Sequence record: NZ_CP102478.1
Direction: 5' to 3' (one strand)
Length of the DNA stretch: 64,000 nucleotides
Origin: a plasmid
Of this stretch, positions 39,001 through 42,000 are shown piece after piece. Position numbers: made by a program. Position 1 is the first letter of the stretch, and the number at the start of each line of letters is the position of its first letter.

Positions 39001-42000
39001 TGAACAGGTCGATTCCGCCACACCCGGCATTCCATGACGGAGGTGTCACGGAACTCAATTGATACGTGCGCTTGGGCATACGCATAAACAGCGAACCGCC
39101 CGAGTACATGTTGAGCGTTTGGCCTTGCAACGCCGCCGGACTGGTGTAGTTCCCTTGGGCGTTCACCGTGTCGAACAGCTGCTGCATCGACATTGCGGCC
39201 GCCGGTTGGGTGTATGCGAGACATGCGATCGACACGCTCGCCAACAGGACCTGCAGGCCGCGCAGATACCGCCGAAACAGGGGGGAAGCGAGAAGCTTAG
39301 GCATGTTGGCCTCCGTCATGCGAGACAGTTCGGGATTGCGGGCCAGGCCGGCCAGGCAGGCGCTCGGCCGACCCGGTTGTCGAACGGTCGCTTGGCAACG
39401 CGTGATGAATGACGTCGTCGAGGATGCGGCCCGCCAGCTTCTTGCCGACGCTGATAACGCGCTCGTCGCCTGGACGAAATACCCGTTCGTCGCTCCCGTC
39501 GTGGAACGCACCGTCGAGAGAAACCCAGCCGTGGGCGCGCGCAGCTTCGAGTTGCTCGTTGGTCGCATTCGTTGCCGGCCGCCATTGGCCCCATTGCTTG
39601 AAGAAGAACGGCACGTCGGCCGCTAGGCATTGGTCGCGCAGGTGGCGCGCCCAATCCGGATGAATCGGCCGCGCGCCGCGGCCGCTCTCGCCCCCAGCGA
39701 TCAGCCAATCCAATTCTTCAAGCGCGTTGGTGCAATCGCGCCAATTCGCACTTGTGAACATGCCATCGAAGCTGACTGGACCAAGCAGAGGCTCCATGCT
39801 CAGGAAGCGCACACGTGCCGGCACCGCGAGCAACTTCGGAATTTCGCGATCGGCCTCGCCCTGGTTGACGATCGTTGCGCCGAGCCAGACGGTCGGCCAC
39901 GCCAGCTCGTCCCACGTGTTGAGCCCGTGGGACAGCTCGTCGACTACCTCGTTAAGCATGTCGCGTGCATTACCGATTCTTTTCGTAAGCAACAACCAAT
40001 CGAGATTTGGCGTGCGCGCAATCAGCTCGAACAGATCTCGGCGCCACGCTGGATCGACAGCGTTGTCGAACGGATCGCAGAGGCTCGGGAAGATTCGAAA
40101 GCGCTGTCCAAGCTCGCGTGCCTTCCGATCCCACCTCAGCGGCATCCTCCACGAGTCCGGCGCAGTGCGACGACGAGGTGCTCCCGCGCCCCAGTTCACC
40201 GCGGTGCGACCGCCGAAGCGCGCGTTGCGCGCCTCGGCGTAACAGTGGTCACAACCCGGCCCGACCTTCTGGCAGCCTTCCCACGGCGACCAGGTGTGGT
40301 CACACCACTCGATATTGCTGTTCTCGCTCACGAAATGCTCTCCTGGTTCACAACGGGAACTGTCCGAGAAGCCTCTGCCGCCACTCGTTCGAAGTAAAAG
40401 ACGATCGGTGCCGCGGTCTCTACGACCAAACCGAAGCGACGCGCGTGGCGATAGGTTGGGTAGTTCTTGTTGAGCACGTCGAGCGTGCGGCTCAGCTTCC
40501 CGCGCCATGCCTCGAGATCCATCGCATGCTTGTCGATGTTGCAAGGCGCGCAGGAGGGCATGAAGTTCTCGATGACATCGAACTCCGGCCGGGTTGGCGG
40601 GCCCGACCTCCAGCGGTAACCACGGTCGGTCTCCACGAGCTTTAGATCGCGTCGTACGGGCTCGAAATGATCCGCATGCCAACGTTCGGACAACGGCATC
40701 CCGCAATAGGCGCACCGCCCGTCGTACTTGCCGCGCAATTCATCGCGTTGAGCTTTGGTGAGGCGGCTCATCCCGCCGCCTTCACGGTTGGCTCACCGTG
40801 GTGCCAGAGAAACGCGCAGTAGGCGGCGACGTCGAGCTGGTCACCCTTCGCCACGTGACGCATCAGTTGCTCCCGGCACTCGTCCATCCAGTTGGTCGCT
40901 ACCCACGAGTCCGCGTATCCGTACTTGTGCTCGGCTTTCGCAAGCTTCGATGCCAATGCGATGTGAAATCGTCGGACCAAGTCAGCCGTACGCGGATGCA
41001 GGTCGTGCGGCATCGGGTCAGTGGCGCAGCCGGAGGACGGCAGCGATTCGGCCGCCGGGCTGTCGGAGTGACCTGCCGGATCGAGGAAGCTGGCGCCTTC
41101 GTCGGGATACTCCTCATCCCACGCATAGAGACCAGCTCCCGAATGACCTGCCGCACCAAACTGCACCGTCACGACCGTGGACTCGTCGACGGCTAGCGCG
41201 AGCAGTTGCAAAATCTGCATCCGATTCAGCCGAACTGCCGAGGAGATGCGTGTCGTCGCCACGTCCGGAATTTCCACACTGGGTTGGTCGGAATACATGC
41301 GAGCCTCCTTAGAAGGTCTGCCCGGGCTGTGTCCCGGTCAGCACGAACAGTCGGTTGACGATTTCTGATACCGACATCGCCCCGAAGCCGATCGCGGCGT
41401 GGTCGCCCGTCTGCTTCGAGCCAATGAAGAGCGCGGGCACACGCTCGACGCCCCATGCGACAGCCTGTGCACGGCCATCGGCCGGATGCGGAAACTCGTC
41501 GATGCCGCGGCCGTCGACTGAAACGCCCAAGACATCGATTCCGTATTTGTCTGCGAGCATCTTCACGGCCGGAGCCATCGCGTGGCAGTAAGGGCAGTCA
41601 GAGCGGAAGAAGAAGATCAGCCCATGGTCCTTGGCTAGGGCACGCAGCTGCGCTTCCTGATCCTGGTCGCGCTGCGCGTCGAACACCTTGATCGCCGAAT
41701 TGTTTGCGGGCCGGGTCAACGTGTAGTCGAGCGCAGGGTTCTGCCAGACGACGCGACGCCACGTATCAGCAAAGGTCGAGCCCTTCTGCTGGGTCACCTG
41801 CCAAAGCTGCAGGTAGTCGCGGATGTGGTCGTCGGTTGGCTCCATCGTCGCGAGGTCGAGCCGGCGCGCGAGTTCCTTTCGCATCTGCTCTGCCGTTCGG
41901 ATATCTGGAATTTCAATTCGCTGGGGCTCTGCGTTCGGTGCCGGCGCGGCCGGAGGAGCAGCTGCTGTGGGCGGCGCTTGGTCCACGTCGTCGCAGTACC

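Follow-up and report, generated by a model that had tools for sequence, protein, structure and literature searches.

Results

Three coupled genes lie between traF and traH

We analysed a stretch of 64,000 nucleotides (nt) from the plasmid record NZ_CP102478.1, hereafter the window. Its minus strand carries a tightly packed F-type transfer operon in the order traN, three small open reading frames (ORFs), traF, orfA, HNH, DUF5131, traH, and traG. This work concerns the three genes between traF and traH, which an initial annotation of the window had described as a cassette at 39297-41298; all three ORFs are indeed found there, on the minus strand. The genes are already annotated in RefSeq as encoding a hypothetical protein, an HNH endonuclease, and a phage Gp37/Gp68 family protein. 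The genes of the operon, with the profile matches of their products and lengths in amino acids (aa), are as follows:

43101 to ~44345, minus strand: traN, an F-type operon gene
41309 to 42142, minus strand: traF, the upstream flank (PF13728, 233 bits; TIGR02740, 195 bits; also TrbB, TIGR02738)
40768 to 41298, minus strand: orfA, 176 aa, with a C-terminal domain here called the X domain (phrog_16519, phrog_4838, and phrog_34459 over residues 96-172)
40328 to 40771, minus strand: small stand-alone HNH endonuclease, 147 aa (PF01844, 25.4 bits; phrog_2118, 159 bits)
39297 to 40331, minus strand: DUF5131 / Gp37-Gp68 protein, 344 aa (PF07505, 273 bits; phrog_2045, 331 bits)
37850 to 39304, minus strand: traH, the downstream flank (PF06122, 361 bits), with its start codon within the end of the DUF5131 gene
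34802 to 37840, minus strand: traG, the operon gene beyond traH

Direct reading of the sequence showed that the TAA stop codon of traF is followed by a 10-nt spacer at an AAGGAGG Shine-Dalgarno sequence and then by the ATG of orfA. The 4-nt overlaps that had been reported among the three genes were also read directly, as ATGA (orfA/HNH) and GTGA (HNH/DUF5131). The DUF5131 gene starts with the GTG at 40331, ahead of which lies AGGAG; a listed ORF of 472 aa is an upstream extension of this gene. A further junction, absent from the initial annotation, joins the cassette to its downstream neighbour: the 3' end of the DUF5131 gene overlaps the ATG of traH by 8 nt (39297-39304), and this overlap is kept in the related loci L001, L002, L003, and L012-L015. 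As the trio is coupled translationally to both traF and traH, the cell would produce its three proteins along with the mating apparatus. TraF, a pilus-assembly protein of the periplasm with a thioredoxin fold and a retained CPYC motif, shows a signal-peptide-like N-terminus in translation. Unlike TraF and TraH, the translations of orfA, HNH, and DUF5131 show neither a signal peptide nor a membrane segment and, since they are without export signals, the three proteins are expected to act in the cytoplasm.

On the F plasmid, the segment between traF and traH holds trbA, artA, traQ, trbB, trbJ, and trbF. The cassette occupies the same operon position and likewise consists of accessory rather than core genes, but it has no homology to any of these six. 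TraF of the F plasmid is without CXXC, which is supplied by TrbB; the TraF of the window retains its own CPYC motif and scores against TrbB models, which could explain why the slot lacks trbB.

The cassette is fixed in close relatives and is under purifying selection

The 6.5-kb region around the cassette is 97.9% identical to that of Burkholderia pyrrocinia plasmid p2327 and 91% identical, across its whole length, to two B. cenocepacia plasmids, and all three plasmids are annotated with the same cassette genes. The same trio, with gene order and overlaps unchanged, was read in seven related Burkholderia plasmid loci, on p2327 and on contigs of B. pseudomallei, B. cepacia, B. contaminans, B. 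ambifaria, and Burkholderia sp. SRS-46. The B. pseudomallei, B. cepacia, B. contaminans, and B. ambifaria contigs, which were found via orfA homologues, encode an orfA product of 176 aa, an HNH protein of 141-147 aa, and a DUF5131 protein of 325-377 aa with the 8-nt traH overlap. Amino-acid identity between the window and its relatives is 89-99% for TraN, TraF, TraH, and TraG, 71-95% for orfA, 79-100% for HNH, and 60-97% for DUF5131.

By Nei-Gojobori estimates, dN/dS is 0.02-0.07 for traN, traF, traH, and traG, 0.15-0.25 for orfA, 0.09-0.17 for HNH, and 0.18-0.24 for DUF5131, with dS of the same order in cassette and tra genes (up to about 1-2). All three cassette genes are under purifying selection. 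The low dN/dS and similar dS therefore indicate that the cassette is functional and has largely co-diverged with the operon. The cassette proteins nevertheless change at three to six times the rate of the tra proteins. In a sliding-window comparison, nucleotide identity falls to 45-65% at about 39650-40200, in the middle of the DUF5131 gene, while most of traF and traH remains at about 80-95%. This trough could reflect diversifying pressure or, alternatively, an exchange of alleles with the many copies present in Burkholderia prophages.

The initial annotation regarded the cassette as inserted and named homing among its possible roles. A recent insertion, or a mobile cassette, is not supported: the GC content of the cassette is about 0.62, equal to that of its flanks, no direct or inverted repeats were found flanking it, no promoter or terminator matches were found inside it, and its dS is like that of the tra genes. 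With no insertion scars, no deviant composition, presence in all close relatives, and purifying selection on all three genes, a homing role is also unlikely. Because the cassette is fixed with the same order and overlaps in every close relative examined, we consider it a lineage-conserved accessory module and not a sporadic insertion. The possibility that it is a conserved core part of this type IV secretion system family therefore applies to the close Burkholderia relatives but does not extend to F-type systems in general: only two of 79 species-level DUF5131 loci adjoin traH, both in Burkholderia sp. SRS-46.

The same families recur in a second lineage and at a second operon site

Plasmids pBTU and pRF23 belong to a more distant lineage, in which TraH is 75%, TraF 77%, and DUF5131 56-57% identical to the window proteins. 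In both plasmids DUF5131 lies directly ahead of traH with the 8-nt overlap, while the remainder of the traF-traH slot differs from the window. On pRF23 the slot contains two hypothetical genes, HNH, a gene for a 'Lar family restriction alleviation protein', a gene for a 117-aa hypothetical protein, and DUF5131. The pRF23 HNH protein is 54% identical to that of the window; that of pBTU is degraded. The C-terminal half of the Lar protein in the pBTU and pRF23 slot is homologous to the C-terminal X domain of orfA. This C-terminal domain is all that orfA has in common with these Lar-fusion proteins, the Lar zinc ribbon (PF14354) being absent from orfA, which has no Pfam match.

A second F-type lineage, represented by B. 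plantarii and B. glumae, carries the module between traB and dsbC-traV. The B. plantarii plasmid bpln_1p has the order traB, X-domain protein (365 aa), HNH, C5 DNA methylase (674 aa), DUF5131, dsbC-traV, with GTGA or ATGA at all junctions; its HNH and DUF5131 proteins are 52% and 48% identical, respectively, to those of the window. At the same site, B. glumae pBIN_1 carries an X-domain protein followed by DUF5131, and in both species the X domain of orfA is homologous to the proteins encoded upstream of DUF5131. That the same three families are found coupled at two sites, in two lineages of tra operon, is the most telling evidence that they may act jointly. The Lar fusion and the methylase in these relatives link the module to restriction.

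DUF5131 is a predicted radical SAM protein

The DUF5131 protein matches PF07505 along the full model (positions 1-243; 273.3 bits, with a cut-off of 28.9; E = 2e-81). Its three-cysteine motif, C20-x6-C27-x2-C30, is invariant among 52 aligned homologues, and its tail (residues 316-344) is disordered. These results and the PF01844 match of its neighbour bear out the DUF5131 and HNH assignments of the initial annotation. RadicalSAM.org classes DUF5131 as a radical S-adenosylmethionine (SAM) subgroup, and its predicted fold is the partial TIM-barrel common to solved radical SAM enzymes. The closest predicted fold is that of spore photoproduct lyase (SPL; PDB 4FHC), at 12% identity in the structural alignment. 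The two differ in cysteine spacing (C-x3-C-x2-C in SPL), and SPL models are absent from the Pfam and NCBIfam matches of DUF5131. A sequence search of solved structures gave nothing significant for any of the three cassette proteins. DUF5131 is most likely a [4Fe-4S]/SAM radical enzyme.

The family is large, comprising at least 7,993 clusters at E <= 1e-10, and was found in 407 plasmid records and 167 phage records. In Xanthomonas phage CP2 the DUF5131 gene is surrounded by genes for replication and recombination (replication initiator, NinB, RusA), and in Gordonia phage Bakery it follows a DNA methyltransferase gene. Such carriage by phages would suit a function that benefits the mobile element. 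The founding member of PF07505, gp37 of Burkholderia phage phiE125, is 57% identical to the window protein over 91% of its length, has the same three-cysteine motif, and is coupled translationally to both of its neighbours. It differs in lying in an early region near the integrase gene, without an HNH or X-domain neighbour and without a link to a secretion system. This identity, and the matches of all three cassette proteins to PHROGs families, agree with the phage origin proposed in the initial annotation.

HNH is a small nuclease with an intact catalytic core

The score of the HNH protein is 25.4 bits for PF01844, above the cut-off of 21.4, and 159 bits for phrog_2118, 'HNH endonuclease'. 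Among 37 homologues, C23, H32, D34-H35, N69, C74, C77, N78, and K81 are invariant and C20 is nearly so; the catalytic D-H ... N ... N core and both zinc-site cysteine pairs are therefore intact. The family consists of small stand-alone nucleases (127-150 aa) that are common in the early regions of betaproteobacterial prophages, where they adjoin methylases, RdgC, reverse transcriptases and, in one case, DUF5131. Homologues at 41-47% identity occur on 2,671 plasmids, 2,426 of which are conjugative. One of these, Escherichia coli pEM18-18-42_1 (MOBH/MPF_F), carries the gene at 6899-7423 as part of a long array made up of small co-directional hypothetical genes.

The C-terminal domain of orfA defines a widespread helical family

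No Pfam, NCBIfam or PADLOC match was found for orfA. Residues 1-95 are predicted to be disordered and occur only in Burkholderia plasmids, whereas residues 100-170 form a confident three-helix bundle, the only part with a pLDDT above 90 in the AlphaFold2 model. The X domain (residues ~98-172) has no Pfam model, with no Pfam match even at E <= 10, yet has 3,099 cluster representatives at E <= 1e-3. Its position varies in proteins of 109-681 aa, and the only recognisable fusions among 158 members scanned were to the Lar zinc ribbon (five members) and to DUF551 (three members). A Foldseek search of BFVD with the X domain returned one true homologue, BcepNY3 gp60, and the fold searches gave no secure relative. 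The low-probability Foldseek matches (0.15-0.35) were to N-terminal domains of dATP/dGTP diphosphohydrolases, so that a MazG- or DUF550-like fold is a weak lead and no finding. An obligate pairing of the X domain with DUF5131 was considered and rejected, as four X-domain loci in prophage early regions have no DUF5131 within 6 kb.

Homologues of the X domain are present on 226 plasmids and, like those of HNH, occur on large conjugative plasmids that are mostly enterobacterial. On Klebsiella pneumoniae p12208-IMP (MOBH/MPF_F), the gene (6680-7753) lies in a similar long array. The arrays of p12208-IMP and pEM18-18-42_1 contain a PAPS-reductase-family protein, DUF6012, DUF957, DUF3085, DUF4942, and hok, and resemble establishment or anti-defence regions.

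DNA methylases and Lar are the commonest annotated neighbours of DUF5131

We compiled 79 species-level DUF5131 loci from a genome collection and called their genes anew. In most of these loci, across many genera, DUF5131 overlaps both neighbours by 4 or 8 nt, and translational coupling is therefore typical of the family. The immediate co-directional neighbours numbered 124 and included, as raw counts, C5 DNA methylase (6), N6/N4 methylase (5), Lar (3), ASCH (3), Mrr_N (3), TraH (2), DnaN (2), and reverse transcriptase (2), with Mom, PAPS reductase, SSB, NinB, and HNH once each. Both pHG1 and pBC201 have DUF5131 in the company of a DNA methylase, Lar, DUF1173, a PLD nuclease, and an exonuclease. 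In prophage contexts, reverse transcriptase genes are a recurring feature of the surroundings of DUF5131 or HNH.

Other features of the window

Between traN and traF lie the three small minus-strand ORFs mentioned above, at 42147-42581, 42533-42841, and 42838-43104 (the last Cys-rich, 88 aa). Their equivalents are kept in all relatives; those at 42147-42581 and 42838-43104 had no family match in any library searched. An insertion sequence (IS) of about 0.9 kb (44343-45250) encodes a DDE_Tnp_1 transposase on the plus strand (ORF 44457-45245) and is bounded by the terminal inverted repeats GAGACGGTTTCA / TGAAACCGTCTC. By comparison with p2327, it sits within the first codons of traN, the original ATG of which (about 45256-45258) is split from the body of the gene. 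Neither p2327, the plasmid of B. pyrrocinia DSM 10685, nor the B. cenocepacia relatives carry this IS in traN. Through this IS, the copy of the operon in the window may be polar or defective for traN and everything downstream of it, the cassette included.

After traG, on the minus strand, come genes for a zeta-toxin-family protein (32099-33691) and a DUF1173 protein (30786-32102), an arrangement shared with pBTU and pRF23; DUF1173 is also the family found near DUF5131 on pHG1 and pBC201. Downstream of the transfer region, a YadA-type trimeric autotransporter adhesin of 1,460 aa is encoded at 23771-28153 (minus strand), the same position as in pRF23. A group II intron is represented by Rfam RF02005 domains D1-D4 (18196-18418, 189 bits), followed by a reverse transcriptase ORF (18526-20058, plus strand). 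The window also holds a minus-strand set of mutagenesis and repair genes, encoding a DnaE2-type Pol III alpha subunit (12854-16003), an ImuB-like Y-family protein (16010-17488), an SRAP peptidase (20114-21076), and an ATP-dependent DNA ligase (7161-8192).

Discussion

With a probability that we put at roughly 0.4, the cassette stems from phages and is a module for DNA modification or anti-restriction that is co-expressed with the mating apparatus. The analysis shows the gene structure, coupling, family membership, predicted fold, conservation, purifying selection, and recurrent co-location with methylases and Lar described above; we infer that DNA is the substrate, that the three proteins cooperate, and that they serve anti-restriction or establishment. 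In the model that we propose, the cassette would be a cytoplasmic, DNA-directed accessory module that travels as a fixed passenger of the transfer operon in this family of Burkholderia F-type plasmids. Through the chain of coupling from traF via orfA, HNH, and DUF5131 to traH, it would be made whenever the mating apparatus is made. DUF5131 would chemically alter or restore bases in the plasmid DNA, possibly with chemistry at the C5-methyl position of pyrimidines, and a nick or cut would come from the small HNH nuclease. The orfA protein, the X domain of which is fused elsewhere to a Lar zinc ribbon, might act as an adaptor or inhibitor. The net effect would be that the transferred plasmid escapes restriction or otherwise establishes itself in a new host. 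A narrower version, in which a radical SAM DUF5131 enzyme modifies or de-modifies DNA bases on or alongside C5-methyl pyrimidines and, with the X-domain protein and HNH, makes up an undescribed DNA-editing system that is co-expressed with the mating apparatus and conditions plasmid DNA for new hosts, is tentative and on present evidence rather doubtful.

The DNA-directed role suggested by the initial annotation is plausible, given that the closest predicted fold of DUF5131 is that of SPL and that the recognisable neighbours of its homologues are mainly DNA methylases and Lar. The further suggestion of a general DUF5131-HNH pairing is not borne out: an HNH gene of the window type lies within 4 kb at one of the 79 loci and the X domain at seven, so that neither partner is obligate. 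This variation in partners counts against a DNA modification or anti-restriction module, as do several other observations. The neighbour counts are raw and carry no background control, most of the 124 neighbours belong to no Pfam family, and the window cassette itself has no adjacent methylase. The cysteine spacing of DUF5131, C-x6-C-x2-C, departs from the canonical radical SAM motif C-x3-C-x2-C, and binding of an Fe-S cluster and SAM by DUF5131 is predicted and unproven. The searchable literature scarcely names the family and gives neither a function nor an experiment for it. Finally, anti-defence genes cluster in the leading regions of plasmids (Samuel et al. 2024, PMC11541004), whereas the cassette lies in the pilus-assembly (mating-pair-formation) block, between traF and traH; its products would therefore be made in the donor. 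Of these points, we consider the chief weaknesses to be the lack of any study of a DUF5131 protein, a location that appears to be outside the leading region, and the variation in partners among loci.

Comparison with known anti-restriction systems shows where the cassette is familiar and where it is not. It resembles Lar/Ral-type restriction alleviation proteins and the orphan methylases of plasmid and phage anti-restriction islands in that the orfA C-terminal domain occurs joined to a Lar zinc ribbon in the pBTU and pRF23 slot, and in that Lar and methylases are the commonest annotated neighbours of DUF5131. It differs in that orfA lacks the zinc ribbon and the window cassette lacks a methylase. 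The anti-defence islands of leading regions are plasmid-borne arrays of small, co-directional, phage-type genes that include methylases and anti-restriction genes (PMC11541004), and similar arrays on large MOBH/MPF_F enterobacterial plasmids contain homologues of both HNH and the X domain. In contrast to such islands, the cassette is embedded in and coupled to pilus-assembly genes, an arrangement that would point to expression in the donor rather than early in the recipient. DUF5131/Gp37 is absent from the supplementary family tables of PMC11541004.

The cassette could instead be a restriction-modification-like module for defence, exclusion or addiction, in which DUF5131, together with Dcm in some versions, marks self DNA and HNH cuts unmarked DNA. 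The targets could be pilus-specific phages, or rival plasmids that make use of the conjugative pilus, and the arrival of unmarked DNA from these sources would account for co-expression with the pilus genes. The cassette does pair a nuclease with a putative modifying enzyme, bpln_1p has HNH, C5 methylase, and DUF5131 in one coupled string, and the raised rate of amino-acid evolution and the mid-DUF5131 divergence trough are typical of conflict genes. DUF5131 also matches the 'B' component models of the PADLOC systems PDC-M41 (PDC-M41B, 158 bits) and PDC-M30 (PDC-M30B, 154 bits), and HNH weakly matches PtuB models of Septu. These systems and the DUF5131-TcmP pair are themselves candidates, however, and neither orfA nor HNH matches an 'A' component or TcmP; TIGR04474 (TcmP), which the initial annotation had proposed to search, is matched by none of the cassette proteins at E <= 0.01 (NCBIfam). 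No complete PADLOC system was found in the cassette, orfA having no match and HNH only weak ones, to the Septu model PtuB and to PtuA and PDC-M01B. In addition, the single window-type HNH among the 79 loci argues that DUF5131 generally needs no nuclease, DUF5131 lies among replication and recombination genes in phages such as Xanthomonas CP2, and co-location with Lar and orphan-type methylases points to counter-restriction. We consider such a module unlikely. We regard as no less unlikely a role in DNA repair or damage tolerance, in which DUF5131, like SPL, would reverse a base lesion or crosslink in the transferred strand or in newly replicated plasmid, assisted by HNH. The SPL-like predicted fold favours such a role, as do the imuB-dnaE2, SRAP peptidase, and ATP-dependent ligase genes elsewhere in the window, the SRAP gene near gp37 in phiE125, and the position of DUF5131 beside NinB and RusA in phage CP2. 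In Mycobacterium tuberculosis, mitomycin C induces Rv2734 as part of a cluster that also contains recA and recX (PMC5057432), which would also fit, although the membership of Rv2734 in DUF5131 rests on a similarity note in the annotation of phiE125 gp37. Repair leaves unexplained both the adjacency to DNA methylases and Lar and the fast amino-acid evolution relative to the tra genes; moreover, DUF5131 shares only 12% identity with SPL and has no match to an SPL family model.

That the cassette does nothing for the plasmid, being a set of phage early genes, perhaps mobilised by HNH, that hitch-hike in a permissive intergenic slot, is improbable. All three genes do belong to phage gene pools, the traF-traH slot is variable in F-like plasmids, as is known from the F tra map, and its content differs between lineages (pBTU, pRF23). 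Yet dN/dS is 0.09-0.25 over dS of up to about 1-2, the seven related plasmid loci do not differ in gene order or overlaps, a second operon site carries the trio too, no repeats or scars are present, and translation of traH is coupled to DUF5131 in every relative. The same coupling, and the position in the pilus-assembly block, might suggest a structural or assembly component of this type IV secretion system, but we think this very improbable indeed: the proteins are phage-type enzymes that lack signal peptides and membrane segments, other F-type systems do not have them, with the two traH-adjoining DUF5131 loci coming from one Burkholderia strain, and their sequences evolve at three to six times the pace of the tra proteins.

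The searchable literature holds no account of the X-domain-HNH-DUF5131 trio in F-type operons at two sites, of the domain shared with Lar fusions, or of an SPL-like fold for DUF5131, and all three thus appear to be undescribed. Delineation of the X domain gives outline to an unnamed helical family with 3,099 cluster representatives and a recurrent Lar fusion, and the cassette provides a genetic handle on the large and uncharacterised DUF5131 family of the radical SAM class. The Burkholderia plasmids offer a clean genetic setting for this purpose, with three coupled genes under selection, conjugation that can be assayed into restricting and non-restricting recipients, and natural variants at hand that have or lack the C5 methylase, the Lar fusion, or HNH. 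If the DNA-editing reading of DUF5131 is true, a family whose thousands of members are spread over phages, plasmids, and mycobacteria would receive its first function. Should the module prove to modify DNA or to counter restriction from the donor side, it would represent a new enzymatic class in plasmid anti-defence, and would mean that anti-defence functions may be built into a pilus operon instead of a leading region.

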